DNA of 36,648 nt from Candidatus Woesearchaeota archaeon (GCA_964652735.1 CAZZCD010000003.1:1-36648); one strand, 5' to 3'. Shown: positions 1-34,353, counted from the first letter of the stretch. Notes: generated by a model not told the origin, from the letters alone. Numbers and translations: made by a program.

Positions 1-91
1 TTTGTAAGAATGGTTGATGATAATTTGTTTCTCGCATACATGTGAATCAAAATAAAGATATATAAGATTTAATATAATCGAATATACCTAA

Positions 92-835: not shown

Positions 836-3800
836 TTACTTATTAACCTCTTCAACGAGCTTTTTTTCTGCAGTTTTTTTCTCAGATTCTTTTTTTATCA
901 ATGGCCCAACTACCTTTACGAGAAGCCCTGGAAGTCCTGTTCCGATAGGTACTGGTTGATTTAATATGATATTTTCAATAACACTTGCAAGGTAATCTTT
1001 ATTTCCTTTTATAGTTGCATTTACAAACTGCTTTACAGGAGTTTCAAAGGTAGCTCTTGCAAGTATCGAAGATTTCTGCGCAATAATCCCTATTCTTGTC
1101 ACTCCCTTAACCTCTCCTGTATTAGTCATAGCATCTGCAATAAACTTTAAGTGTCTTTTATCAATATTTAATCCCTGGGTGTTTAAAACCTCTTGAATTT
1201 CATCAATGATAAATTGTCTCGCAGCTTCAATTCCAAACACACTTGCAACTTCATGAAGGTCATTTGAAATCAGCTTTTCAGAAGCAACTTCTTTCAATTC
1301 CAGTAATTTTTTCAAACTGGTTCCAAGAGTCATAATAATATAATCTCTGTCTTTTTTCACAATTAAAATTTGTTTTATTCCCTTGATTCCGGAAATTATA
1401 GTATTCTTGAGTTTTTCTTTAAGTTTATAAATTTCCTTAAAATCCATTTCAGAAGCATTAATGATTATTGAATCTGTCTTTTCTTTTGCATCAAATTTAA
1501 GGTCACGAAGTCTGTCAATAACTTTCTTTAGAGTTATGTGGCTTTGTCTTATTCCTTCTTTATCAATTTTTATTTCTATTTTTTTATTACTAAAATCAAG
1601 ATTAATTTCAGAAGCAATATCTTTTATTGTGACTTCTTTAATTTTTTCAGCAAAAACACGGGCATCTTTTTCATTGTTATATTCTTTTTTAAGATATATT
1701 TCCATTTTTGGAGAAGATGGTTTTTTCCTTGCATCAAAAATTTCTATAAGTCTTGGCAATCCCTGGGTAATCTGCATTTCAGAAACACCTGCGAAGTGGA
1801 AAGTTCTTAACACCATTTGTGTAGATGGTTCTCCAAAAGACTGAGCAGTAATTACCCCTATCGCCTCCCCTGGCTCTAATTTTCCATTAATATGAAGTCT
1901 TGAAACATCTATGCCGTCATCCCCATATATAAACTGAATAATATTATTATTGCTGTCTCTTATTGTCCCATCATATTCTTCTCTTAAATCCTGAAGAGCA
2001 TTTGCAAGTCTTCTGTAAAGATATCCTGACTTAGGAGTTCTTAATGCAGTGTCCATAAGGGATGCTCTTCCTGTTATAGCTCCAAAGAAAAATTCATCAG
2101 GTCTCAGTCCTTTTATGAAAGGGCTTCTTATGAATCCTTTTGCTTTTGGAGATAAGTCTCCTTCTTTGAAAAATGAAAGTGTTCTGTTGCTATAACCGAT
2201 ATCCACTCTTCTTCCTTCAAGATCCTGCTGTCCAACACAGCAAGCCATCTGTGTTATGTGTGTGATTCCTCCCCCTCCACCAGAGCGAATCATATGTGTA
2301 ACAGGATTTTCCTCTGGAAATTCTTGTTTGACAATTTTTCCTATTTTTGTTCTTATTTCATTTAATACTTTCAAGATTTTAATCTCTCTTGATTCCTCTT
2401 TTGTCTTACCCCGGATTATTTCAAGTGTACCCTGATTATAAGAATTAATTATCTCTGTGGTTTTTTCCTCTGCTTTTTTAATTATTTCTTCTGACATTTC
2501 AAAAACTTTTTCTTCTACATCAAAGTCTCCAAGAGAAATAGTGATTCCTTTTTCTGTAAGATAGTTTTTCCCAAGATTAAATGCTTTCTTAATTGTTTCA
2601 AAGGCAACTGTTCTTCCAAATTGTTTATCAATTTCTTTAATTAAGACACCATCTTCATCACCAAAAAGATCTTTATCTATGATTCCTTTAAGTATTTCTC
2701 CGTCTTGGATTTTTATATTTGAATTTGAAAAATTAATTTTTGGGAGTATTTTTGAAAAGATTTCCGTCCCAAGAACTGTTTTCTTTGAAAACTGGTGATT
2801 GATTCCTGCTCTATAAAGAATCTGGTTTGCCTCTTCATTTGAAAATTCTCCAAGCCCAAGGAGATATCCTCCTGTGATGGCATCATTTATACATCCAACC
2901 CAATTTGTGTTATTTTTAGGAGAAAAAAGATTTTTTTTAACTTCAAGAAGTACTTTTGCTTCTGCTTTTGCTTCCTCTGTCTGAAGACTGTGAATATTCA
3001 TTTCATCACCATCAAAGTCAGCGTTATAAGGAGCTGCAACAGCAGGATGCAATCTAAATGTTCTTCCAGGAAGAACCTTTACATAATGAGCCATCAGACT
3101 GCCCTTATGAAGACTTGGATGCCTGTTAAATAACACAATATCTCCTTTTTCAAGATGCCTCTCTACTATATATCCTGGAATAAGCTCGCTGATTATTTCC
3201 TCTTTAAGCTCTTCTGTTATTTTTTTTCTTTTTCCGTCAGGCCTTATAATATAATTTGCTCCTGGATATTCAGCACCTCTTTTTATAAGTTTTTTTATCT
3301 TTTCAATATTTAAATCATTAACAGTTTCTGCAACAGTAACAACCTTGGCAATTTCATAAGGAATTCCAACCTCATTAATTTCTATTGAAGGATCAGGAGA
3401 AATAACTGTTCTTCCAGAATAATTCACTCTTTTTCCTGCAAGGTTTTTTCTGATTCTCCCTTCTTTACCCTTGATTCTTTCTGTAATTGTTTTTAATGGC
3501 TGTCCACTTCTATGTCTTGCAGGCGGAATTCTTGCTACAGTATTGTCAAAAAAAGTTGTAATATGGAATTGTAACAGATCCCATAAATCTTCAATAATAA
3601 CCTCTGGAGCTCCTGCATTTAAATTCTCCCACAATCTTTGGTTTGCTCTTATAATGTCAGAAAGTTTATGGGTTAAATCATCCTCACTCCTTTCTCCACT
3701 CTCTAAAATAATGCTTGGTCTTACAGTTACAGGAGGAACTAAAAACATAGTTAAAACAGCCCATTCAGGCCTGAAATTTTTCGCGTCCATACCTATTTTT

Positions 3801-4324
3801 TCAAGTTCTTCATCAAGAATATTCACAAGCATTTCCCTTATTTCTATAGGAAAAATTCTTATTTTTCCTTTGTAAAATGTTGTTGGCTTATCAAGTTTTA
3901 TTTTTTCCTGAGCAGAATTACAATGAGGACATTTTTTTGAATCTTTTGCTTTCTTAACTCTTTGGCTTGGAGTGTTTTTCTCAAGATTTTTATCAGCGAG
4001 CATTAATTTTCCACAGTTTTGGCAGAAAGACCTCAAGCAAAGTTCAATCACAGGAACATACTTCAAATGAATCACAGGTCTTGCAATGTCAATGCTTCCA
4101 GGATGTCCAAGACATTCTTTTAGCCTTCCCCCACATGTTCTGCATCTTACTCCAGGATCAATTGCTCCAAGTCTTAAATCCATCAAGCCCCCATCAACAG
4201 GATAACCATCGATATCATAAAGTTCTGGAGTTACAATCTTTGCAACAGACATCTTTTTTATCTTCTCAGGGCTAAGCAAAGAAAATATCATTTCACTTAT
4301 CTTTTTTCTTATTGGTTTAGCCAT
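836..4324 (-). CDS. rpoA: DNA-directed RNA polymerase largest subunit, fused Rpo1N(A')+Rpo1C(A'')
   Basis: NADFDGD catalytic motif, N-terminal Zn motif CRTC..CLGHPG; A' end (YGDDG) runs straight into A'' (PGEAIG..AQSFGEPSTQM..TFHFAG); start set at MAKPIRKK (4324) to avoid overlap with upstream ORF. Confidence 0.97.
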   Translation of the reverse strand: MAKPIRKKISEMIFSLLSPEKIKKMSVAKIVTPELYDIDGYPVDGGLMDLRLGAIDPGVRCRTCGGRLKECLGHPGSIDIARPVIHLKYVPVIELCLRSFCQNCGKLMLADKNLEKNTPSQRVKKAKDSKKCPHCNSAQEKIKLDKPTTFYKGKIRIFPIEIREMLVNILDEELEKIGMDAKNFRPEWAVLTMFLVPPVTVRPSIILESGERSEDDLTHKLSDIIRANQRLWENLNAGAPEVIIEDLWDLLQFHITTFFDNTVARIPPARHRSGQPLKTITERIKGKEGRIRKNLAGKRVNYSGRTVISPDPSIEINEVGIPYEIAKVVTVAETVNDLNIEKIKKLIKRGAEYPGANYIIRPDGKRKKITEELKEEIISELIPGYIVERHLEKGDIVLFNRHPSLHKGSLMAHYVKVLPGRTFRLHPAVAAPYNADFDGDEMNIHSLQTEEAKAEAKVLLEVKKNLFSPKNNTNWVGCINDAITGGYLLGLGEFSNEEANQILYRAGINHQFSKKTVLGTEIFSKILPKINFSNSNIKIQDGEILKGIIDKDLFGDEDGVLIKEIDKQFGRTVAFETIKKAFNLGKNYLTEKGITISLGDFDVEEKVFEMSEEIIKKAEEKTTEIINSYNQGTLEIIRGKTKEESREIKILKVLNEIRTKIGKIVKQEFPEENPVTHMIRSGGGGGITHITQMACCVGQQDLEGRRVDIGYSNRTLSFFKEGDLSPKAKGFIRSPFIKGLRPDEFFFGAITGRASLMDTALRTPKSGYLYRRLANALQDLREEYDGTIRDSNNNIIQFIYGDDGIDVSRLHINGKLEPGEAIGVITAQSFGEPSTQMVLRTFHFAGVSEMQITQGLPRLIEIFDARKKPSSPKMEIYLKKEYNNEKDARVFAEKIKEVTIKDIASEINLDFSNKKIEIKIDKEGIRQSHITLKKVIDRLRDLKFDAKEKTDSIIINASEMDFKEIYKLKEKLKNTIISGIKGIKQILIVKKDRDYIIMTLGTSLKKLLELKEVASEKLISNDLHEVASVFGIEAARQFIIDEIQEVLNTQGLNIDKRHLKFIADAMTNTGEVKGVTRIGIIAQKSSILARATFETPVKQFVNATIKGNKDYLASVIENIILNQPVPIGTGLPGLLVKVVGPLIKKESEKKTAEKKLVEEVNK

Positions 4325-4325
4325 T

Positions 4326-4721
4326 TTATTTTTTAGGTTTAGGCATATTGAAGAATTTAAATAATTCCCCATTAAATTTTAATCTATCTTTACTAGAACA
4401 AATAATAGTCAAAAAGATTTTTTTATCTCCTAAAAACAAATCTGCTCTAATATTTACATTATACCCTTGAATTTCATCATGTTCATCTTTAATTTTTTCA
4501 AAATTTATTTTTCTATATTCTAAATTATCTTTTTTATCTTCATATCCTTCTTCAAGGCATAACTTTATTTTCAAAACTTTTGATAAAATCTCTGAAAGTT
4601 TTTCTATAACTTTTTGTTTTTTGTCAAAAATGTAATAATTAAAATCTCTCTCGTTTCCAATAGAGTGAAGTATAAATTTTTTCTTACTGGTTTTTCTTTT
4701 TATAGTTTTTTTGTTTTTCAT
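4326..4721 (-). CDS. hypothetical basic protein between rpoB and rpoA
   Basis: 131-aa ORF separated by 1 nt from each RNAP gene; no recognisable motif. Confidence 0.75.
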   Translation of the reverse strand: MKNKKTIKRKTSKKKFILHSIGNERDFNYYIFDKKQKVIEKLSEILSKVLKIKLCLEEGYEDKKDNLEYRKINFEKIKDEHDEIQGYNVNIRADLFLGDKKIFLTIICSSKDRLKFNGELFKFFNMPKPKK

Positions 4722-12030: not shown

Positions 12031-12750
12031 CTATCTTATTTCGCTTTGCCGAAGATATTTAATTGCTTCCCTCTGTGCTTTTTCCATCAGGTCTTTAGAA
12101 GTTTCAGGAAATTCTTCAAGTCGAGGATTGATTAATTCTCCTTGTCTTGGAACAAAGGGTTGTAGATAATATCTATGGGTGCTGTCTCCTGTAACTTCAA
12201 CAATCCATTTTGCAATGGCTTCAACTTCTTCAGGAGTCATAAAATCAATCTCTTCTCTTATAATAGGAGCAATAGTTGTCCTGAACTCATAAGCTGGAAA
12301 TTCTTTAACTATTTGAAAACTTTCTTCAATATTTTTAAGATTTATTCCAGAAATTCCTGTTACTGCTTTATATAATTCCTTAGGTGCTTTAACATCCATT
12401 GCAACATAATCAATTAAATTTTCTTCACGCAGTTTCTTTAATACTTCTGGATTGCTACCGTTTGTATCAAGTTTGACTGCTAATCCTCTCTCTTTTAATT
12501 TTCTTACAAAATCCACTAATCTAGGTTCAAGAGTCGGCTCTCCTCCACAAAGAACCACCCCTTCAATCCACTTCTTTCTTGAGTCTAGATAATCAAAAAA
12601 CTCTTTTTCATCTCTCTCCTCCCTACTTGTTAAAAGGGGCTTTGCATGGCAGGCAGGACATCTATAATTACAATCTGGGAAAAAAACCACTGCAGAAATC
12701 TTTCCAGGATAATCTATAAATGATTCTTTTAAAAATTCCCCGATTTTCAT
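12031..12750 (-). CDS. nrdG: anaerobic ribonucleotide reductase activating enzyme (radical SAM)
   Basis: CNYRCPACH, GGEPT, KLDTNGS, AMDVKA, EFRTT; near nrdD. Confidence 0.92.
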   Translation of the reverse strand: MKIGEFLKESFIDYPGKISAVVFFPDCNYRCPACHAKPLLTSREERDEKEFFDYLDSRKKWIEGVVLCGGEPTLEPRLVDFVRKLKERGLAVKLDTNGSNPEVLKKLREENLIDYVAMDVKAPKELYKAVTGISGINLKNIEESFQIVKEFPAYEFRTTIAPIIREEIDFMTPEEVEAIAKWIVEVTGDSTHRYYLQPFVPRQGELINPRLEEFPETSKDLMEKAQREAIKYLRQSEIR

Positions 12751-12751
12751 T

Positions 12752-13018
12752 TCAGTTGAATTGGTGATTTAATATTTTTTCTCCTTGAGCAATCACCTCA
12801 ATTTTAGACTTACTTCTTCTTATCAAGACAGGAAGAACAATTCGTTGATCATCTCTTTCTATATCTTCTTTTACATCTCTTAAAATAGCAGAAAAAGACT
12901 TTCTTCCAGCACTTGCTTCTAATCTAGATTCAGAACAAACTATCTTTGCTTCTCTTAGATAAGCTTTTACTTTTTCACATATTCCACAATTTGGCAGAGT
13001 GTATAATTCATAGTTCAT
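12752..13018 (-). CDS. glutaredoxin/NrdH-like redoxin
   Basis: LYTLPNCGICEKVK..L and LPVL; 4-nt overlap with nrdD. Confidence 0.75.
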   Translation of the reverse strand: MNYELYTLPNCGICEKVKAYLREAKIVCSESRLEASAGRKSFSAILRDVKEDIERDDQRIVLPVLIRRSKSKIEVIAQGEKILNHQFN

Positions 13019-15093
13019 GTTTGAAATCTTTCCCTATGGGCAAATTCTTCTTTTTTTCCTTTGTTCCAAGTGTTAATCGGTCGCAGATAACCAACAATTC
13101 TATCATAAATTTCTGTTTCTTCTCCACAATCTAGACAAGCTTCAACTTTCCCTGAAAGATAACCATGATTAGGGCAAACACTAAAAACAGGAGTAATACT
13201 AAAATAAGGGAGCTTGGTTTCTGTAGCAATCTTTCTAACAAGATTTTTTGCAGTTTTTCCATCAATCCTTTCTCCTAAATATGTGTGGAATATTGTTCCT
13301 CCTGTATAAAGAGTTTGAAGAGATTCTTGATGTTCTAATGCAGAGAATAAATCTTTTTTAGAATCAACAGGCAATTGGGTTGAATTTGTTAAAAACGGTT
13401 CATCACTTCCAGAAGTATGAATATGTGGATAAAGTTGTTTATCTAATTTTGCAAATCTATAAGAAGTTGATTCTGCAGGAGTTGCTTCTAAATTATAAAG
13501 ATTACTTGTTTCTTTTTGATACTTTAATGCCCTATTTCTCATAAAATTAAGAACCTTTTCTGCAAAAGCTTTTCCTTCAAGGGTAGAAATATCTTTTTTT
13601 AAGAAATTTACACATGCTTCATTCATTCCACAAAGCCCAATTGTGGAAAAATGATTTTCAAAATGTCCTAAATAAGATTTTGTATAAGGCACAAGACCTT
13701 CTTCAAGAGTTTTTTTAATCACTGCTCTTTTAATTTCTAATGATTCAGAAGCCACATCCATCCATTCCCCAAGTTTCTCTAAAAATTCCTTTTCATTGTT
13801 AGCTTCATACCCAATCCTATTCATGTTTATTGTAACAACACCAATACTTCCTGTAGAATCCCCAGGTCCCCACATATTTCCAGGCCTATTCATTAATTCT
13901 GTTTGATCTAAATTAAGTCTACAACACATTGCCCTAATTGATTTAGGATCTAATCCAGATCCAATATAATTTTGAAAATAAGGAATTCCATACTTTCCTG
14001 TAACTTCAAATAATAAATCTGAAACTTCAGAATCCCAAGCAAAATCTTTAGTTAAATTATATGTTGGAATTGGAAATGTGAAAATTCTTCCGTCTTTATC
14101 TCCGTGCATCATGGTCTTTAAAAAACCCAAATTAATCATATCCATTTCTTTTTGATATTCTCCATATGTTGAATCTAATTCTTCTTCACCAATAATTGCT
14201 TTTTTATCTTTCAAATCTTTTGGAACAGTTAAATCAAAAGTTAAATTTGAAAAAGGAGCTTGCCAACCCCAACGAGAAGCGACATTTAAGCTATAAATAA
14301 GATTTTGCATACGTTGATCAACTTTTTTTTGATTAAGATTATCTTTTCTTACAAAAGGAGCTAAAAACGTATCTACAGAAGAAAATGCCTGGGCTCCTGC
14401 AAATTCTCCTTGCATACTTCCAATATAATTAACCATGTGAGGTATAATTGTATCTAGGTGCTTAGCAGGAGAGCTCTGAACCCGCTCACGAACCTTTCCA
14501 AAACCTTTTTTTATTAATTGTTCTAAAGAATGACCACAACAATAAGCAACAATAGGAAAATCCAAATCATGAATATGGATAGAACCATCTTCATGCAAAT
14601 TTTTTATTTCTTTATTATACATATCGTTTAATGCGTATAAATTAAGAATTTTTCCTGCAAGATTAGCATTTAAACCTTGGAAAGTTACTCCTCCTTGGTT
14701 TGCATTTTCAGAAGAACTTGGATCTTCTTTCTCAACAAATCTTTTAACAAGATTGTTAGAAAACTTAAGTATAGCTTGTTCAGAGCGGCCCATATCTCTG
14801 AATTTTTTATGGGCTTTTCGATAAACACTATATTTTTTTTGAGTTGAATTATAGCCAAGACCCCTCATAGTGTCTTCTACAATATTTTGTATTTGTTCAA
14901 CAGTTGGATGTGAAACATCACCAAACATTATTTTTAAGGTATTAACAACCATATTAGAGACTCCTTGAGATGCAGAAATAGGATCTCCTTCAAACAATTC
15001 ATCTGCTACAAAAGCTTTTTTAGCAGCCACCGTGATTTTTTCAGGAGTAAAATCTGCTATAGTTCCATCTCTTTTTGTAATTTGTTTAATCAT
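13015..15093 (-). CDS. nrdD: class III (anaerobic) ribonucleoside-triphosphate reductase with ATP-cone
   Basis: ITKRDG ATP-cone, IHIHDL, AMCCRL, LEATPAES, CPNH..CLDC Zn site, RIVGYLRP glycyl-radical motif. Confidence 0.96.
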   Translation of the reverse strand: MIKQITKRDGTIADFTPEKITVAAKKAFVADELFEGDPISASQGVSNMVVNTLKIMFGDVSHPTVEQIQNIVEDTMRGLGYNSTQKKYSVYRKAHKKFRDMGRSEQAILKFSNNLVKRFVEKEDPSSSENANQGGVTFQGLNANLAGKILNLYALNDMYNKEIKNLHEDGSIHIHDLDFPIVAYCCGHSLEQLIKKGFGKVRERVQSSPAKHLDTIIPHMVNYIGSMQGEFAGAQAFSSVDTFLAPFVRKDNLNQKKVDQRMQNLIYSLNVASRWGWQAPFSNLTFDLTVPKDLKDKKAIIGEEELDSTYGEYQKEMDMINLGFLKTMMHGDKDGRIFTFPIPTYNLTKDFAWDSEVSDLLFEVTGKYGIPYFQNYIGSGLDPKSIRAMCCRLNLDQTELMNRPGNMWGPGDSTGSIGVVTINMNRIGYEANNEKEFLEKLGEWMDVASESLEIKRAVIKKTLEEGLVPYTKSYLGHFENHFSTIGLCGMNEACVNFLKKDISTLEGKAFAEKVLNFMRNRALKYQKETSNLYNLEATPAESTSYRFAKLDKQLYPHIHTSGSDEPFLTNSTQLPVDSKKDLFSALEHQESLQTLYTGGTIFHTYLGERIDGKTAKNLVRKIATETKLPYFSITPVFSVCPNHGYLSGKVEACLDCGEETEIYDRIVGYLRPINTWNKGKKEEFAHRERFQT

Positions 15094-15107: not shown

Positions 15108-15542
15108 TTATAACTCTCTTAATTCTTTTTTAAAATCTTTAATGTCTTGAAAATCTCTGTAAACAGAAGCAAATCTTATGTATGCAACATTATCCAGTTT
15201 TTTTATTTTTTTCATGATTAACTCTCCAATAGTATAACTCTTTAGCTCTTTCTTCCCTTTTTTCCTCAGTTGTTCTTCTATTTCATTTATCATCTTTTCA
15301 ATCTTTTCCTTAGAGATAGGTCTTTTTTCAAAAGCTTTTTCAATTCCTGTTTCAAGTTTTTCCCTTGAAAACTTTTCACGTCTACCATCTTTTTTTATTA
15401 CAAAAAACTCACTCCGACTTATTTTTTCATAAGTGGTGAATCTCTTCTTACATTTTAGACATTCTCTTCGCCTCCTTATTCCCTCAGGAGATGGTCTTTT
15501 ATCAGTTACTTTAGATGCACCAGTACAATACGGACATTCCAT
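15108..15542 (-). CDS. nrdR: transcriptional repressor NrdR
   Basis: MECPYC..IRRRRECLKCKKRFTTYE Zn ribbon, ATP-cone, VAYIRFASVYRDF; true start at 15542. Confidence 0.95.
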   Translation of the reverse strand: MECPYCTGASKVTDKRPSPEGIRRRRECLKCKKRFTTYEKISRSEFFVIKKDGRREKFSREKLETGIEKAFEKRPISKEKIEKMINEIEEQLRKKGKKELKSYTIGELIMKKIKKLDNVAYIRFASVYRDFQDIKDFKKELREL

Positions 15543-15545
15543 TTT

Positions 15546-15592
15546 ATACCATATATAGTATGTAAAACCTGTAGTATCCCAACAGATTGTAG
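15546..15592 (-). promoter_or_regulatory. tandem NrdR boxes
   Basis: Minus strand ATACTATATATGGTAT (15546-15561) and CTACAATCTGTTGGGA (15577-15592) resemble the acaCwAtATaTwGtgt consensus and are 31 bp apart; TATA (TTTAAATA) near 15620. Confidence 0.8.
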
Positions 15593-15721
15593 AACCCAAA
15601 ATAAAGACTTATTAAGTATTTAAAGATTTATGTCTACTAAAATATAATAACAGAACACACAATCCAAAACAACTTTTATAAACTATTTTTTCTTACATAT
15701 TAAATATAAAAAGAGGTCGAA

Positions 15722-23007: not shown

Positions 23008-23892
23008 ATGGATAAAGAGGGAAATAATAATCCAAAACAAGAGCAGATTCACGACATTTTGTTCAATAGAGAGATTGGATGGCAGGAAATTATTTATGAT
23101 TTGATTAATACAGAGCAGTTAGATCCATGGGATATAGATATTATAATCCTTACAGGCAGATTTCTTGAACGAATTGATGAACTTGAAGAGGCAGATTTCT
23201 TTGTTTCAGGAAAGGTTCTTCTGGCTGCATCGCTTTTACTAAGAATTAAGTCTGAAGTTCTCTTAAATAAACACATAAAAGACATAGACGAGATTTTATT
23301 TGGGAAAGAAGAGGAAAAGAAAAATGTTTTTGAGAGAATTGAACTTGATGAGGCAATTCCAGAACTGATTCCTAAAAGTCCTATGCCAAGATTCAAAAAA
23401 GTAACTCTTCAAGAGCTTATGGATTCTCTTAATAAGGCAATTTCAACAGAACACAGAAGAATTAAAAAAGAAATAATAAATAAGAACGCTCTCAGAGAGT
23501 CCTCTTTCTCCTTACCAAAAAAAGGGTTTAGTATAAAAAATAAAATAAGGAAGATTTATGAAAATCTTATGAAACATTTTAAAGAGAACGAGAAAAAGAA
23601 AAAAGTTTCTTTTACAGATTTTATAGGGAATGATAAAGAAGAAAGAATAATCTCCTTCTCCCCTCTCCTCCATCTTGATCATCAGAAAAAAGTCTGGCTT
23701 GAGCAGGAAGAACACTTTGATGAATTTTATATCTGGCTTAAAGAGGTTTATTTTAAACACAATCCAGACCCGTTCGCAGATTTGAAAGAAGAAATTGGGG
23801 AAAAAATAGAAGAGCTGGATTCGGAAAAAAAGAAGCGGCTTGAAAAAATCAACAAAGATTTTGAAAATCCCTTAGGTAGTTTGTTTGACTGA
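23008..23892 (+). CDS. scpA: segregation and condensation protein A (kleisin)
   Basis: LDPWDIDI, SGKVLLAASLLLRIKS, KVTLQEL, F..LLHL...V.LEQEEHF. Confidence 0.9.
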   Translation: MDKEGNNNPKQEQIHDILFNREIGWQEIIYDLINTEQLDPWDIDIIILTGRFLERIDELEEADFFVSGKVLLAASLLLRIKSEVLLNKHIKDIDEILFGKEEEKKNVFERIELDEAIPELIPKSPMPRFKKVTLQELMDSLNKAISTEHRRIKKEIINKNALRESSFSLPKKGFSIKNKIRKIYENLMKHFKENEKKKKVSFTDFIGNDKEERIISFSPLLHLDHQKKVWLEQEEHFDEFYIWLKEVYFKHNPDPFADLKEEIGEKIEELDSEKKKRLEKINKDFENPLGSLFD

Positions 23893-23993
23893 TTATTATT
23901 GATGTTGGGAAAATCCTAATTAGGATATAATCTTTCTATCACTTATGAACTTGTACTAACAATTCTTAAAAACTCTTTCTCACTTTGTTCTTC

Positions 23994-24662
23994 ATGAAAT
24001 TAGGTGTTTTATTTTCAGGAGGGAAAGATTCTTGCATGTCTACCTGGTTTGCAAAGAAGAAAGGAAATGAATTAACATGTTTGATAACCCTTGAATCTGA
24101 AAATCCAGATAGTTATATGTTTCATACACCTTCTATTTCTAAAACAAAACTTCAAGCAAAAGTTATGAAATTGCCGTTGATTGTTAAAAAAACAAAAGGA
24201 GTTAAAGAAGAAGAACTTAAGGATCTTGAATCTGCAATTAAAGCTGCAATTGATAAATATGAAATTGAAGGTATTGTTACAGGTGCATTGCATTCAGAGT
24301 ACCAAAAATCAAGAATAGAAGATATATGTAATAAGCTTGGACTAAAATGTCTTAATCCTTTATGGCACAAGAACGAATTCAAATATTTAAATGAATTAAT
24401 CAAGAACAATTTTGAAGTTATTATCACAGGTATTGCAGCGCATCCTTTAGATGCGTCTTGGCTTGGACGAAGAATTGATAAGAAGTTTGTAAAAGATATG
24501 AAGCATCTTAATAAAAAATATCAAATTCATCCTGCAGGAGAAGGGGGAGAATTTGAAACCTTTGTGATAAACTGCCCCTTATTTGAAAGAGGATTAAAAG
24601 TAACAGGTGCAAACTTCACAGGGGAAAAACATTCCTGGAAGATGGAGATTGAGGTGGGATGA
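23994..24662 (+). CDS. dph6: diphthine--ammonia ligase
   Basis: LFSGGKDS, SYMFH, GALHSEYQ..R, PLW, GEGGEFET. Confidence 0.92.
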   Translation: MKLGVLFSGGKDSCMSTWFAKKKGNELTCLITLESENPDSYMFHTPSISKTKLQAKVMKLPLIVKKTKGVKEEELKDLESAIKAAIDKYEIEGIVTGALHSEYQKSRIEDICNKLGLKCLNPLWHKNEFKYLNELIKNNFEVIITGIAAHPLDASWLGRRIDKKFVKDMKHLNKKYQIHPAGEGGEFETFVINCPLFERGLKVTGANFTGEKHSWKMEIEVG

Positions 24663-25492
24663 TGAAATCGCTTGGAAAAATATCTTTAGTAACTTTATTA
24701 CTGTCTGTTTTAGTTTCTCCAATTAAAGACGCCGAAGAAAATTTTATTCAACAAATAGTTATTAATGATGAAGTCCAAAAAACATCAAAAATTAATCATG
24801 ATATTTCTTCACTTATAAATTATCTCGAAGAAAAAGGTTTTCAAATAAATGATTTACTACAAGACCCAAGATTTGAAATCTATAAGGGGATAAGAAATAA
24901 GTTTATATATTCTGCAGAAAAAAAATCCCAAACCCTTGAAGAATATAAAGAAGCATTAGGATATAAATATATAAAAAACAACATATCTGATTTTATTAAC
25001 AACAATATTAATCAATTAATAATAGCAGAGGAAGCTTACAGGATTTCTAAATATATTACTTCAGCTATAATTGGAATTGAGTCTGATTTTGGTAAAAAGA
25101 AAGGAGACTTTAATCCATTTAATGCTTATGTTTCAATGTATGCAGATAATTACAAAAAGGAATTTGCAAGCACACAACTTGAAGAGTTGTTAATTTTCTG
25201 TGAAAAGAATGAAATTGATGTTTTAAGTTTAAAATCAAGTTATGCAGGAGCTATTTCATATGCACAATTCCTTCCTTACTCATTAAATAGATGGTTTATA
25301 GGAAATGATTTATATGATATGGATAACAATATTCTTTCAGCTGCTAGTTATCTTTCATACTTTAAAAAAATAACAGGAAGCCTTGAAGAAGCTATTTCTG
25401 AATATAATCCAAGCGAGCTTTTTGTAAAAACTGTTTTAGATCTTGCAAAAGACGCAGAAAAATTATACCCCTGCCGAGAATTGAACTACTAA
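24659..25492 (+). CDS. secreted lytic murein transglycosylase, MltB/SLT_2 family
   Basis: N-terminal signal-like segment; AIIGIESDFG catalytic Glu; SSYAGAISYAQFLP, D..S.ASYL, YN.S..V..V. Confidence 0.85.
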   Translation: MMKSLGKISLVTLLLSVLVSPIKDAEENFIQQIVINDEVQKTSKINHDISSLINYLEEKGFQINDLLQDPRFEIYKGIRNKFIYSAEKKSQTLEEYKEALGYKYIKNNISDFINNNINQLIIAEEAYRISKYITSAIIGIESDFGKKKGDFNPFNAYVSMYADNYKKEFASTQLEELLIFCEKNEIDVLSLKSSYAGAISYAQFLPYSLNRWFIGNDLYDMDNNILSAASYLSYFKKITGSLEEAISEYNPSELFVKTVLDLAKDAEKLYPCRELNY

Positions 25493-25503
25493 GCCATCAC
25501 AAA

Positions 25504-25893
25504 TTAATCTTCTTCAAAAATAGAGACTAAACAATGACCACAGACATAACCCTCTCCTTTAACATGATGTAATTTTGTATTATATTTTGGTTTAACATTA
25601 GAATCTTTTATCAGGAAGATGCCTTCTGTTGTTGGAACTACTGGATTACGTGATTTATTAATTTGATAAGGATTTAACCAAGGAGAAATAACGCTACAAG
25701 GTATACAATTAAATGCAAAAGGAGTTGGAAATGTAACTGGATCATGAAAAGAAGATCGATTCGCCTCAAGACATTTTCTTTCCTCTTCTCCAGCTTCTTT
25801 AAGATATTCATTCCAATCTTTTTGTGTTATTGTTAAAAATTCTTTTAGTTTTTGGTTATCTGTTAAAATTTTTATTAGTTCTTGCTTCTTCAT
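25504..25893 (-). CDS. hypothetical protein, possible Zn finger
   Basis: CIPC and CGHC pairs. Confidence 0.65.
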   Translation of the reverse strand: MKKQELIKILTDNQKLKEFLTITQKDWNEYLKEAGEEERKCLEANRSSFHDPVTFPTPFAFNCIPCSVISPWLNPYQINKSRNPVVPTTEGIFLIKDSNVKPKYNTKLHHVKGEGYVCGHCLVSIFEED

Positions 25894-26399: not shown

Positions 26400-27524
26400 C
26401 TAAATCCCAAAAACACTTTCCCTTCCTGTTTTCATATCTTTAATTTTAAACTTCTTTGCTTTAACTTCTTGACTTCCCACAAAAACAACTTTCTGAAAAT
26501 TACAAGAGTTTGCATAATTAAGGGCCTTTGAAGGTTTTCCGTAATAAATACTTGCGATCTTTCCTTTTTTTCTAAGTTTTTGTGCTAATTTGATTGCCTC
26601 TTTATCTTGTTTCAGTGATATTATAAGAGTTTTTTCATCTTCTGATTTTATTTTTGAAACAAACACCAATCTTTCCAGACCAAAAGAAATTCCTGTTGCC
26701 TGAACCTTATCTACCATATAGCTTCCTCCACCTGCAACAGAATCTTTAGAACCAACTTTAATTTCAAAAACACTTGAATTATAATAAGTTAATCCTCTTG
26801 ACAGCGAAGGAGAAAATACAACATTTACACCATAGTTTTTACAAAATCTTTTAAGTTGCTCAATCTCTTTATATGATTTATATTTTTTAAAGTAAGATTC
26901 TGGTTTTTTAATAATACCCATAACCTTTTCAGCTCTGATTTTCTTTAGATTTACTCGAACTTCTTTTTCAGGAAGTTTGCCAAATTTATCAATTTCTCTG
27001 ATTGTCTGCTCTTTGTTTTTAATTTTTAACTCATTAAATATTTCATTTAACAGCTTTCTGTTATTGATGTAAATCTTTGGCTTAATCCCACATCTTCCTA
27101 ATATTTCAGAAACCATTGCAAGAATTTCTGCCTCCTCGCGTATTGTTGAGCCTACAACATCTACATCACATTGTGTAAACTGCCTAAATCTATTTGCAGA
27201 AACAGGCTCGTCCCGGAACACTTCTCCAATCTGATATCTTTTATAAGGAAGTTTTTTGTTTTTTGCAAGTCTGTTCAATTGAAATGTGAACTCATATCTT
27301 AAAGCAAGCTTTCTTTTTCCTTTATCTTTAAGTTTAAAAATATCTGAAATAACTTCATCACCAGCATTTTCTCCTTTAACAAATTCTTCATATTCTATAA
27401 TAGGAGTTTCAGCAGACTCAAATCCATATCTCTCAAAAGTCTCGACTAGGATTTTCCTAATTTCTGCCTTTTTTCTGGCTTCTTCGCCAGAATAATCTTT
27501 AAAGCCTTTTACTGTTTCTTTCAT
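26400..27524 (-). CDS. hisS: histidine--tRNA ligase (compact)
   Basis: KGFKDY, TPIIEY, ALRYEFT, FRDEP..RFRQFTQCDVD, RGLTYY, GISFGLER. Confidence 0.93.
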   Translation of the reverse strand: MKETVKGFKDYSGEEARKKAEIRKILVETFERYGFESAETPIIEYEEFVKGENAGDEVISDIFKLKDKGKRKLALRYEFTFQLNRLAKNKKLPYKRYQIGEVFRDEPVSANRFRQFTQCDVDVVGSTIREEAEILAMVSEILGRCGIKPKIYINNRKLLNEIFNELKIKNKEQTIREIDKFGKLPEKEVRVNLKKIRAEKVMGIIKKPESYFKKYKSYKEIEQLKRFCKNYGVNVVFSPSLSRGLTYYNSSVFEIKVGSKDSVAGGGSYMVDKVQATGISFGLERLVFVSKIKSEDEKTLIISLKQDKEAIKLAQKLRKKGKIASIYYGKPSKALNYANSCNFQKVVFVGSQEVKAKKFKIKDMKTGRESVFGI

Positions 27525-30376: not shown

Positions 30377-32104
30377 TTAATCTAAACCTTTTTGGAGAGA
30401 ATAAAATTTATAATAAAGACCCTTCTTACTCATAAGTTCCTTGTGATTTCCTACTTCTGCAATTCTTCCTTTATCTAGAACAACTATCTTGTCCGCATTT
30501 CTAACTGTTGAAAATCTATGAGCAATTATTATTGTTGTTTTTCCTTCTATAAGCCGATCAATTCCTTCCTGAACTTTTTTCTCTGATTCTGCATCAAGAG
30601 CGGCTGTGGGTTCGTCGAGAATTAATATCTCAGGATTTTTCAAGAAAGCCATTGTAATAGCAATTCTTTGTCTTTGTCCCGTTGAGAGCTTTACTCCTTT
30701 TTCCCCTACTATTGTGTTGTATTTTTTAGGAAGCTTTGAAATGAATTCATCTGCAGAAGCAGCCTTCGCTGCATTAATAATTTCTTTTATAGTGGCTTTT
30801 GGATTGGCATATTTCAAGTTATTTATTAAAGTATCATTAAATAAATTCAAATCTTGGGGAACTATTGCTATCTGATTCCTCAACCATTTTAATTGTAACT
30901 TTGATATGTCTAAACCATCTAAAAAAATTCTCCCTTCTTTTGGTTTGTAATACCCCATAATAAGTTCAGCCAGAGTTGTTTTTCCCACTCCGCTCTTGCC
31001 GACAAGAGCAACAGTTTCCCCGCTTTTTATTTTAAGATTAATATTTTTCAAAATAGGCTTATCTTTTAAATATTCAAAATCAACATCGTCAAAGATTATC
31101 TCTCCCTTGAGATTGTCTAATGTTTTATTTCCGTGTTTCATTTTTTCAGGAACAATTTTTCTTAACTTCAAAAATCTCTTAACAGCAACAACAGATCTCT
31201 TATATCTTCTGTATATGCCGCTAAAAAACCTAAATGGACCAAATGCTAAGTTTATGTATCCAAAGAACATAACAAACTGGCCCGGCGTTATTTTCCCGTT
31301 TCTTAAGAAAAATATAGCTGAACCTAATACAGCCACAAAACTAAGGCTATAAACAACTCCTTGTGCAATAGAAACTCTTTTTGATTTATCTGCAGCATTC
31401 TTAACTGCTGGAAGGGTTTTGCCAACAAGAGATTTAAAAAATCTTTTTCTCTCTTTCTCTTCCATAACAAAATTCTTGACAAGAAAAACATTGTATAATT
31501 TATCATAAACATTCCCATATTGCTTCTCAAAAACCTTGTGCTCTTTTTTTCTAGCAGCAAGTTCTGGTTTTACTAATTTAACAGTTAAAATTGTATAAAT
31601 AATAAAAGAAAAGATAACAATTAAGGCGAGCTGCCACTGTATTATAAACATAACTACAAGAGAGAATAATAACATTAAAAATTGGGGGAGTACATCAGAA
31701 ACCGAGGATATTAAATCATTTAATGACCACGAACCCCTTAAAATTTTTTGCAACACTTCCCCTTTTCGTTCTTTTTTATGAAATAAAATAGGAAGGGTCA
31801 GAAAATGTGAATAAGCTTCTGATTCGGTTTCTAAGGCGATCTTTGCTCCTAAAATTTCTCCCATAAAACCTGTTTTATTAGAAATATATGTTGATAGCAA
31901 ACTCAATACAAGCCATAAAGCAATAAGAGAGAGCAGGATATTGGTCGCTGTTTGAGTGATTATAGCTAAGTCAAACAACCTACCATAAATATAAGGAATA
32001 ACAACTGCTAAGGCGGCCCCAATGGTTGCAACCATAATAATCTTTGTTAGTTCTTTTCTGTTAGCTTTAAATATATCAAGAAAGAATTTTTTTGTATTAT
32101 TCAT
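30377..32104 (-). CDS. ABC exporter, fused permease and ATPase
   Basis: N-terminal TM helices, GKSGVGKT, LSTGQRQR, ILILDE, IAHR; ATG at 32104 preferred. Confidence 0.93.
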   Translation of the reverse strand: MNNTKKFFLDIFKANRKELTKIIMVATIGAALAVVIPYIYGRLFDLAIITQTATNILLSLIALWLVLSLLSTYISNKTGFMGEILGAKIALETESEAYSHFLTLPILFHKKERKGEVLQKILRGSWSLNDLISSVSDVLPQFLMLLFSLVVMFIIQWQLALIVIFSFIIYTILTVKLVKPELAARKKEHKVFEKQYGNVYDKLYNVFLVKNFVMEEKERKRFFKSLVGKTLPAVKNAADKSKRVSIAQGVVYSLSFVAVLGSAIFFLRNGKITPGQFVMFFGYINLAFGPFRFFSGIYRRYKRSVVAVKRFLKLRKIVPEKMKHGNKTLDNLKGEIIFDDVDFEYLKDKPILKNINLKIKSGETVALVGKSGVGKTTLAELIMGYYKPKEGRIFLDGLDISKLQLKWLRNQIAIVPQDLNLFNDTLINNLKYANPKATIKEIINAAKAASADEFISKLPKKYNTIVGEKGVKLSTGQRQRIAITMAFLKNPEILILDEPTAALDAESEKKVQEGIDRLIEGKTTIIIAHRFSTVRNADKIVVLDKGRIAEVGNHKELMSKKGLYYKFYSLQKGLD

Positions 32105-32243
32105 TACATAAAAAGCCAAAATTAATTTATAAAACTTTTTCCCCGTCGATTTTCAGAAGAAAACCTTATATGGTTTAAATCCCTCGAAACAAATAGAAAC
32201 CCCTAATCTAAATATTTATATATTTGAATATCTTTTGTTTTTA

Positions 32244-33903: not shown

Positions 33904-34353
33904 ATGGTAAAAAGATCCACAGAAGAATTGGAAAAAATGTTAACAGAAACAAGTGAAAAAAAGATAGCAATAGATGAGGAAGCACTCTCTTTTACTTCTT
34001 TGTCTCTAGGAAGTAGGAATCCTCCTCAAATTGAAGTTTTAACACATTATATGAGAGATATTATCCAATTATATGAAAATGCGAAAAGTGTTATAAAAGA
34101 AGATTATGAAAAAAGAAGAAAGTTATTAGATAAAGAGCTTATTTATTCTGAGTTTTCAGTTAGAACAGGCAATTGTTTAAAAATTAATGGCATAACAACA
34201 GTAAGAGATTTAGTTAGTAATATAAAAAGTGAAGAAGATTTTTTCAAATATAAAAATGTAGGTAGAAATAGTTTTGCTGAAATAAAAGATTTTTTAGATA
34301 AAAACGATTTACATTTGGGAATGGATATTAACGAATATTTAGGACAGGAATAA
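33904..34353 (+). CDS. protein with bacterial RNA polymerase alpha C-terminal domain
   Basis: EFSVRTGNCLKINGITTVRDLV..SEEDFFKYKNVGRNSFAEIKDFL..DLHLGM matches the alpha-CTD pattern LSVRxxNCL...I..v.DL...E.dll...N.G.kS..EI...L...GM. Confidence 0.88.
   Translation: MVKRSTEELEKMLTETSEKKIAIDEEALSFTSLSLGSRNPPQIEVLTHYMRDIIQLYENAKSVIKEDYEKRRKLLDKELIYSEFSVRTGNCLKINGITTVRDLVSNIKSEEDFFKYKNVGRNSFAEIKDFLDKNDLHLGMDINEYLGQE

Follow-up and report, generated by a model that had tools for sequence, protein, structure and literature searches.

Gene organisation at the locus

The analysed stretch of DNA, referred to below as the window, is a contig of 36,648 nucleotides from a Candidatus Woesearchaeota archaeon (GCA_964652735.1 CAZZCD010000003.1:1-36648). 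Directly downstream of the archaeal diphthine-ammonia ligase gene dph6 it carries a gene for a short-form family-3 lytic transglycosylase of the SLT_2 family with an export-type N-terminus. The open reading frame (ORF) called here coincides exactly in coordinates, strand and length with the one given in a preliminary description of the window, which was made from the sequence alone and had proposed a secreted MltB-type peptidoglycan lytic transglycosylase acting on bacterial walls. The features of the locus are listed in Table 1.

The upstream gene was identified as dph6 by the TIGR03679 equivalog (276.4 bits vs. a cut-off of 197.3). The junction reads gaggtgggATGAtgaaa, in which the dph6 stop codon TGA (24660-24662) and the first ATG of the transglycosylase gene (24659) share 4 nt, in agreement with the overlap reported in the preliminary description. 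A second ATG at 24662 overlaps the stop codon by 1 nt and gives the 276-aa form found as database entry P0001. The GAGGTG motif is located 2 nt ahead of the first ATG and 5 nt ahead of the second, and the second, better spaced ATG may be the real start. The placement of the motif suggests translational coupling from dph6 to the transglycosylase.

The gene occupies a variable slot in a ScpA-Dph6-HisRS backbone, together with an ORF of 129 aa. The latter is missing in the related strain represented in sequencing run X6, which has 68 other letters between positions 25459 and 25946; hence even close strains differ in the dph6-hisS slot. A promoter and terminator scan detected nine sigma-70-like sites, with 11.1 expected, a sigma-70 scan being unsuited to archaea. 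The sequencing runs containing the stretch (16 listed, from seven studies) are labelled as marine sediment or marine metagenomes, and no RNA run is among them.

Table 1. Features of the dph6-hisS locus and of two more distant neighbours; parts of the transglycosylase are given as residue numbers.
Feature	Position	Strand	Remarks
ScpA	23008..23892	+	Left flank of the ScpA-Dph6-(variable slot)-HisRS backbone
Archaeal diphthine-ammonia ligase Dph6	23985..24662	+	TIGR03679; stop overlaps the transglycosylase start
GAGGTG, Shine-Dalgarno-like	24651..24656	+	Inside the dph6 3' end; sequence read directly, putative function
Short-form family-3 lytic transglycosylase (SLT_2) gene	24659..25492	+	277 aa; ORF call, profile, alignment, model
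Transglycosylase, predicted signal/anchor	residues 1-21
Transglycosylase, helical linker	residues ~22-47		Low-confidence
Transglycosylase, catalytic body	residues ~46-271
Transglycosylase, catalytic Glu	residue 141
129-aa ORF	25504..25893	-	No family match; in the variable slot beside the transglycosylase
Histidyl-tRNA synthetase	26400..27524	-	Convergent right flank of the variable slot
Pilin-like ORF, 151 aa	28255-28710	-	Start MRRTMENKRG/LSAIVATLIIILLVL; class III archaeal pilin-type look, judged by eye
ABC_membrane + ABC_tran ORF	30377-32119	-	Pfam

Family assignment, motifs and N-terminus

A search with the SLT_2 profile had been proposed as a check in the preliminary description. The protein matched Pfam SLT_2 (PF13406) with an E-value of 3.6e-25 and 89.2 bits, against a gathering cut-off of 24.3; the match spans residues 86-233, which correspond only to profile positions 43-197 of 292. 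The Pfam SLT profile (PF01464) gave a weak match over the C-terminal helix region that, at 19 bits, stayed below the cut-off of 21.3. The MltB equivalogs of NCBIfam were not reached (85 bits vs. 281.4 for TIGR02282 and 54 bits vs. 449 for NF008029), and as these scores are far under the cut-offs, the protein is a member of the family and not an MltB orthologue. The sequence search against the PDB returned SltB1 (5o8x and 4anr, E 2e-13) and Slt35 (E 4e-9). The family-3 lytic transglycosylases, represented by MltB/Slt35 of E. coli and SltB1 of P. aeruginosa, correspond to CAZy family GH103.

The segment IIGIESDFG pairs with IIGVETFFG of SltB1, which places E141 on the SltB1 Glu of the G-x-E-S/T motif. 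The catalytic Glu of the solved members is E162 in Slt35 and E135 in SltB1. The motifs that had been noticed earlier were all recovered at their places, with E141 in IES, SYAGA starting at residue 194, QFLP at 203 and YNPS at 249, and all 22 aligned homologues agree in the columns of the Glu and of SS.AGA, QF.P and YN. The identification as a lytic transglycosylase is upheld by the SLT_2 profile, the PDB matches, the intact catalytic Glu and the fold match described below.

The N-terminus, MMKSLGKISLVTLLLSVLVSP, contains K3 and K7 followed by residues 8-18, a stretch whose hydrophobicity (Kyte-Doolittle 2.69) is the highest of any 11 consecutive residues in the protein. The first Cys is residue 181, thus the protein has no lipobox, and no pilin-type motif was seen by eye at its N-terminus. 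Judging from its residues, this N-terminus is a Sec-type, export-like signal or anchor; the Pfam scan identified genes for SecY and SecD/F in the same genome. Of the earlier designation "secreted", the export-type N-terminus stands, and the term could equally cover a released form and one held by an N-terminal anchor.

Predicted structure

The AlphaFold model of the transglycosylase (predicted local distance difference test score, pLDDT, 82.1; predicted template modelling score, pTM, 0.75) is all-helical, and beta strands of at least three residues are absent from it. Foldseek matched it to SltB1 with an E-value of 5.5e-8 and a template modelling (TM) score of 0.70, and all eight matches at E <= 0.001 were SltB1, Slt35, SltB3 or SltB2. 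The VIA-align comparison with SltB1 (4anr) gave Z 23.4 and a root-mean-square deviation of 2.5, with 220 of 297 residues aligned to model residues 46-271, and that with Slt35 (1d0k) gave Z 21.4, with 222 of 314 residues aligned. The next family was MltF (Z 13.4), followed among the lower matches by goose-type lysozymes (Z 11.5) and a Ralstonia chitinase (Z 9.9).

The model offers no counterpart for ~80 residues of SltB1 and ~90 residues of Slt35, and the DFDGDG calcium loop of SltB1 lies opposite a 7-residue gap in the alignment of the transglycosylase. The missing parts correspond to the beta domain of Slt35 and to the EF-hand calcium site; both are traits of the solved members and stand outside the Pfam definition of SLT_2. 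According to the model, the protein is a minimal enzyme that retains the alpha-helical catalytic body known from Slt35 and SltB1 and lacks both their beta domain and their EF-hand loop. The earlier term "MltB-type" is thus supported by the profile and the model for family and fold alone, and it does not extend to the MltB equivalog, the beta domain, the EF-hand loop or the lipobox.

Archaeal origin of the locus

The preliminary description had taken the overlap with dph6 as an argument against contamination. The 36.6-kb contig carries Rpb1, Rpb2, Rpb7, S24e, the archaeal Dph6, aminoacyl-tRNA synthetases and NrdD, with archaeal genes on both flanks and a uniform G + C content (GC) of ~0.3. The genome to which it belongs (G000) consists of 39 contigs with a total length of 478 kb, and is 71% complete with 0.46% contamination. 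The composition of the transglycosylase gene is within the range of this genome, with a GC of 0.273 (9th percentile), a GC at third codon positions of 0.176 and a codon-usage distance at the 38th percentile (347 genes).

Within the genus, SLT_2 was found in 4 of 42 genomes, with open reading frames in all four, while Dph6 was found in 37 of 42. The 30 dph6 loci of the genus that were compared showed SLT_2 directly downstream and on the same strand in all four carriers, and the other 26 are without it; hisS is visible within the 1.5 kb fetched in 12 of these 26, in three of them immediately behind dph6. The copies are diverged, with 49-62% identity. Moreover, a contig of 2,747 nt from run X6, which belongs to another study, bridges positions 23910-25333 from dph6 into the transglycosylase with ~5-6 differences per 100 letters, and has a 30-nt insertion in the linker region of the transglycosylase. 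No bridge of the junction was obtained from the other runs: X1 and X3 gave short pieces (99-100% identity), none across 24368-24709, and X5 covered only 24060-24456.

The shared synteny, the bridging contig of the other study and the native composition exclude a chimera, and judging from them the transglycosylase gene is native to the archaeon and is inherited with its chromosome. The closest named homologues of the protein are bacterial (Balneolaceae), as would be expected if a bacterial gene had been fused to an archaeal contig during assembly or binning, but the overlap with dph6, the same gene order in four genomes, the independent contig across the junction, the GC inside the genome's own range and the archaeal flanks on both sides render such an artefact practically negligible.

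Distribution and phylogeny

The word-based protein search yielded 589 homologues at E <= 0.001 among 1,716 candidates. The best 120 of these 589 comprise metagenome proteins with 64-84% identity, many Balneolaceae proteins with ~50-60% and one protein with 54% from the metagenome-assembled genome (MAG) of a "Nanoarchaeota archaeon"; the identities refer to these 120. The annotation "lytic murein transglycosylase [Nanoarchaeota archaeon]" already exists in public records. The exhaustive search of cluster representatives gave 23 clusters at E <= 1e-30, 135 at E <= 1e-10 and 1,410 at E <= 0.001, and the small number at the strict threshold indicates a narrow subfamily.

A relative is encoded on 152 stretches of the named genome collection. 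Among the best 80 of these, which were examined, 78 are labelled Balneolaceae, Balneolales or Bacteroidota/Bacteroidetes, one is from a Nanoarchaeota MAG and one is a contig labelled Methylophaga. The last one (L077) is a contig of 3,889 bases whose SLT_2 protein is nearly identical to the Aliifodinibius copy (L070), and it is probably misbinned. In Balneolaceae, 106 of 121 sampled genomes gave a match, which was a single one in all but one genome, and nearly all matches had E <= 1e-92. The short form is the sole SLT_2 match in the three Balneolaceae genomes checked. As regards archaea, 13 of 301 genomes of the order-level sample were above the SLT_2 cut-off, matches occurred in 11 of 122 genera, and several of these copies are distant and long-branched. 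In the phylum-wide sample, SLT_2 was present in 10 of 400 other genomes, every one of which belongs to the same class.

This patchy spread (4/42 in the genus, 13/301 in the order) and the position in a variable slot are what might be seen if the gene were a neutral or decaying remnant of lateral transfer that is functionless now. We consider this highly improbable, since the frames are intact in all four carriers of the genus, the copies have retained all catalytic motifs at 49-62% identity, the composition is fully ameliorated and the gene is tightly coupled to dph6.

The phylogeny that had been suggested in the preliminary description was inferred twice. The quick tree, based on 109 rows, left many forks open. 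The careful rooted tree was based on 58 rows and 278 columns, with a bootstrap that was not fully settled (correlation 0.989). It groups the window protein with close metagenome relatives and the copy of genome G041 (support 100/99), and the Balneolaceae sequences form the sister clade of this group (82/86). At an unresolved base stand the copies of three further genomes, G014, G020 and G301, and that of the other Nanoarchaeota MAG; the class-level archaeal copies are placed lower, within a clade of 46 rows (97/91). All of the named sequences around and below the Balneolaceae clade are archaeal. Constraining the genus copies to one group cost 18.9 log-likelihood units with a borderline p-value of the approximately unbiased test (p-AU) of 0.067, so the monophyly of the genus copies was not rejected; together with the shared dph6 slot, this fits a single acquisition in the genus followed by losses. 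A topology in which the named archaeal sequences are split from Balneolaceae and the far outgroup was rejected (p-AU 0.0044), in a test whose group was chosen after the tree had been viewed and which involves long branches.

The tree points clearly to an old inter-domain transfer between these archaea and Balneolaceae, whose direction leans one way by topology, with Balneolaceae nested among archaeal copies, and the other way by prevalence, which favours a bacterial origin. It is conceivable, if doubtful on balance, that the short form is an old family of the archaeal lineage and that the ancestor of Balneolaceae gained its sole family-3 lytic transglycosylase from such an archaeon; the prevalence of 106/121 in Balneolaceae vs. 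4/42 in the archaeal genus points in the opposite direction. If this were true, a core wall-remodelling enzyme of bacteria would be of archaeal source, which would imply a long physical association of both lineages.

Murein-related genes and proposed function

Five carriers of SLT_2 (G000, G014, G020, G041 and G301), with a completeness of 71-87% (71% for G000), were searched for murein-related families. The Pfam scan outside the window covered 150 ORFs plus 50 predicted exported proteins, of 506 in total, and was accompanied by six-frame searches with single families. Mur ligase (Mur_ligase_M) was found in none of the five carriers by a search that was positive in control genomes, including two archaea. 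Likewise, NagZ/GH3, AnmK and LD-carboxypeptidase were each found in 0/5 carriers, and neither a transpeptidase nor SEDS was found in the genome of the window. Amidase_2 was present in 2/5 carriers, with none in the genome of the window; in G020 it matches positions 88201-88542 of contig C6, within a frame of 397 aa on the same contig as the SLT_2 gene and ~11 kb apart from it. No SLT/GH23 (PF01464) match was found elsewhere in the genome of the window, and no further murein-lytic family was found among the 50 predicted exported or anchored proteins that were scanned in addition to the first 150 ORFs. This set includes a Peptidase_C25, two Peptidase_M10 and a PKD protein, and many of its large members gave no match at all. 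Hemolysin/TlyC, M23, NlpC/P60, CHAP and Amidase_3 were looked for within the Pfam-scanned ORFs.

Since neither genes for own-wall synthesis nor a recognisable route of muropeptide recycling were found, foreign bacterial murein is the best reading of the substrate. The exported enzyme would act on the walls of neighbouring bacteria, be they host, prey or competitor, and we give this reading a probability of about 65%. The lack of a Mur ligase match in the five carriers agrees with the action on bacterial walls, in the setting of a host, prey or scavenging, that was suggested in the preliminary description. The sequence data establish the family and fold of the protein, its conserved active-site motifs and export-type N-terminus, the native status and synteny of the gene and the families that were not found in the carriers, whereas enzymatic activity, substrate, location after export and ecological role are inferred from them.

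The transglycosylase gene probably shares a transcript with the housekeeping gene dph6, with its translation coupled to that of dph6. The product would leave the cell through the Sec system, after which it would either be released or stay tethered to the surface through the hydrophobic segment at its N-terminus and the short helical linker. Once exported, it would use Glu141 as the single acid/base, and the MurNAc-beta-1,4-GlcNAc bond would be cut with formation of a 1,6-anhydro-MurNAc end. In this way, the sacculus of a bacterium that is host, prey or competitor may be thinned or opened where the two cells touch, and such murein cutting at the surface would serve attachment, entry, killing or nutrient release.

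Several points weigh against an action on neighbouring bacteria. The lifestyle of the genus does not require the gene, as it is carried by only 4 of 42 genomes, and a dedicated attack toolkit is not evident because the searches described above recognised no second murein hydrolase in the genome of the window. The loss of the beta domain and of the EF-hand might alter the substrate, and a chitinase has the same lysozyme-like fold. In addition, as the carriers are incomplete, the families that were not found may be located in unassembled DNA.

The same enzyme could also serve the scavenging of nutrients, in which anhydro-muropeptides are freed from dead bacterial walls in the sediment and imported, with no living partner involved. 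An organism with a genome of 478 kb must import many building blocks, the genome encodes the exported proteases named above as well as a CstA peptide transporter, and the runs containing the stretch are labelled as marine sediment or marine metagenomes. What makes scavenging unlikely is that the enzymes that process anhydro-muropeptides (NagZ/GH3, AnmK and LD-carboxypeptidase) were found in none of the five carriers, which is not conclusive in incomplete genomes, and that Amidase_2 was found in just two of them, the genome of the window not being one.

Another possible substrate is a glycan of the archaeon itself or another GlcNAc polymer, chitin-like or a surface glycan, the cutting of which might remodel the envelope, e.g., for pili or division. 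As the beta domain and the EF-hand are missing, the enzyme may recognise its substrate differently, its fold also occurs in goose-type lysozymes and a chitinase, and the genome codes for glycosyltransferases (GT2 and GT4) and for a polysaccharide flippase-like protein. Nevertheless, the motifs of the active site match those of murein transglycosylases and are invariant between the archaeal copies and those of the murein-bearing Balneolaceae, Mur ligase was found in 0/5 carriers, and the distribution in 4/42 genomes fits poorly with envelope housekeeping. To our knowledge, pseudomurein is also without the C6-OH of MurNAc that is required for the 1,6-anhydro product. We thus regard a glycan of this kind as an improbable target, and bacterial murein as the preferred one.

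Comparison with known enzymes

The archaeal protein resembles MltB/Slt35 and SltB1 in its SLT_2 family, in the fold over ~220 residues (Z 21-23), in the Glu of the E-S/T motif and in the SYAGA, QF.P and YN motifs. It differs from them in being ~80 residues shorter, in the strand-free model, in having no lipobox and in its host, in which no murein genes were found. It is closer to the short form of Balneolaceae (Rhodohalobacter, Fodinibius, Aliifodinibius, Gracilimonas and Balneola), with which it shares 45-60% identity over nearly the full length, the length class of ~255-300 aa, the motifs and an N-terminal signal. However, the short form is near-universal in Balneolaceae (106/121), where its presumed substrate is the wall of the cell that makes it, whereas in the archaeal genus it is sporadic (4/42) and is without an own-wall substrate.

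Transglycosylases of DPANN archaea have been read as directed at bacterial murein in PMC8204110, which mentions an earlier record from three genomes, and in PMC9723730, the latter of which interprets five Woesearchaeota MAGs with GH23 enzymes as "vampiristic". The same theme of large GH23 proteins recurs in PMC10936187 and PMC11537232. The statement in the preliminary description that similar enzymes had already been noted in DPANN is borne out by these four papers. The giant transglycosylases of Woese- and Pacearchaeota (fam00969) are comparable to the protein described here in the archaeal group, in the proposed bacterial-murein target and in the lysozyme-like superfold; unlike those proteins, which reach up to 3,000 aa and belong to SLT/GH23, it has 277 aa, belongs to SLT_2 and stays under the cut-off of PF01464.

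Archaeal peptidoglycan hydrolases have been reported to kill bacteria, and homologues of peptidoglycan hydrolases were listed for 175 of 3,706 archaeal genomes, prominently in Nanoarchaeota, in PMC12352652. The transglycosylase is similar to these hydrolases, as described there, in that archaea without murein encode enzymes against bacterial walls. The main text of PMC12352652 contains the word "transglycosylase" once and "SLT" never. A partial literature search, which excluded supplements, found no description of the small SLT_2 type in these archaea.

The general picture is unchanged, since murein transglycosylases of these archaea have been published already, most of them large GH23 proteins. 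The present analysis adds the fixed slot behind dph6 with presence or absence of the gene in congeners, the minimal architecture of the enzyme and the sister family in Balneolaceae. Murein-cutting enzymes in archaea without murein are among the few hints at the sequence level that some ultra-small archaea may live on or from bacteria and not other archaea. A small, easily expressed enzyme of a single domain, compared with the giant GH23 proteins, makes the bacterial-wall hypothesis testable at the bench, and the presence or absence of the gene in the dph6-hisS slot offers a natural comparison for ecology. The sister family in Balneolaceae in turn points to an old transfer between the domains.

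Other features of the contig and genome

The pilin and the ABC exporter that the preliminary description had placed in the vicinity of the transglycosylase gene are both present, the former as a pilin-like ORF recognised by eye and the latter as an ORF with ABC_membrane and ABC_tran domains; nothing points to a functional tie of either to the transglycosylase. Starts with KGQ followed by hydrophobic residues, as in the pilin-like ORF, occur in further ORFs of the genome (L155:3951-4739, L161:8954-10780 and L163:11919-13146).

In most archaea, the largest subunit of RNA polymerase is split into A' and A''. In the window it is unsplit, as a single ORF of 1,178 aa (836-4372, minus strand) holds Rpb1 domains 1 to 5. 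Another bacterial-type domain on this archaeal contig is the RNA_pol_A_CTD (E 9.4e-14) in an ORF of 149 aa at 33904-34353 (plus strand). A NrdR-like repressor with a zinc ribbon and an ATP-cone (15108-15599, minus strand) is encoded directly upstream of NrdD (13015-15093, minus strand), and a radical-SAM activase-like ORF is located nearby (12031-12750).

On contig C2 of the same genome (L147:4154-5716, minus strand), an ORF of 520 aa has an Asp/Glu racemase domain (residues 1-132) before a class-I Trp/Tyr tRNA-synthetase domain, which may reflect either an unusual fusion or read-through across two genes. A giant open-ended ORF of more than 3,151 aa with Hint/intein modules (L146:1-9454, minus strand) adjoins a Laminin_G_3 protein of 1,055 aa, and an ORF of 2,184 aa (L161:2403-8957, minus strand) is predicted to be exported and has no Pfam match. 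Intein and LAGLIDADG insertions were found in eRF1 and in a helicase (L145:8617-10998 and L148:602-4135, both on the plus strand), and several free-standing LAGLIDADG ORFs are present despite the genome size of 478 kb.

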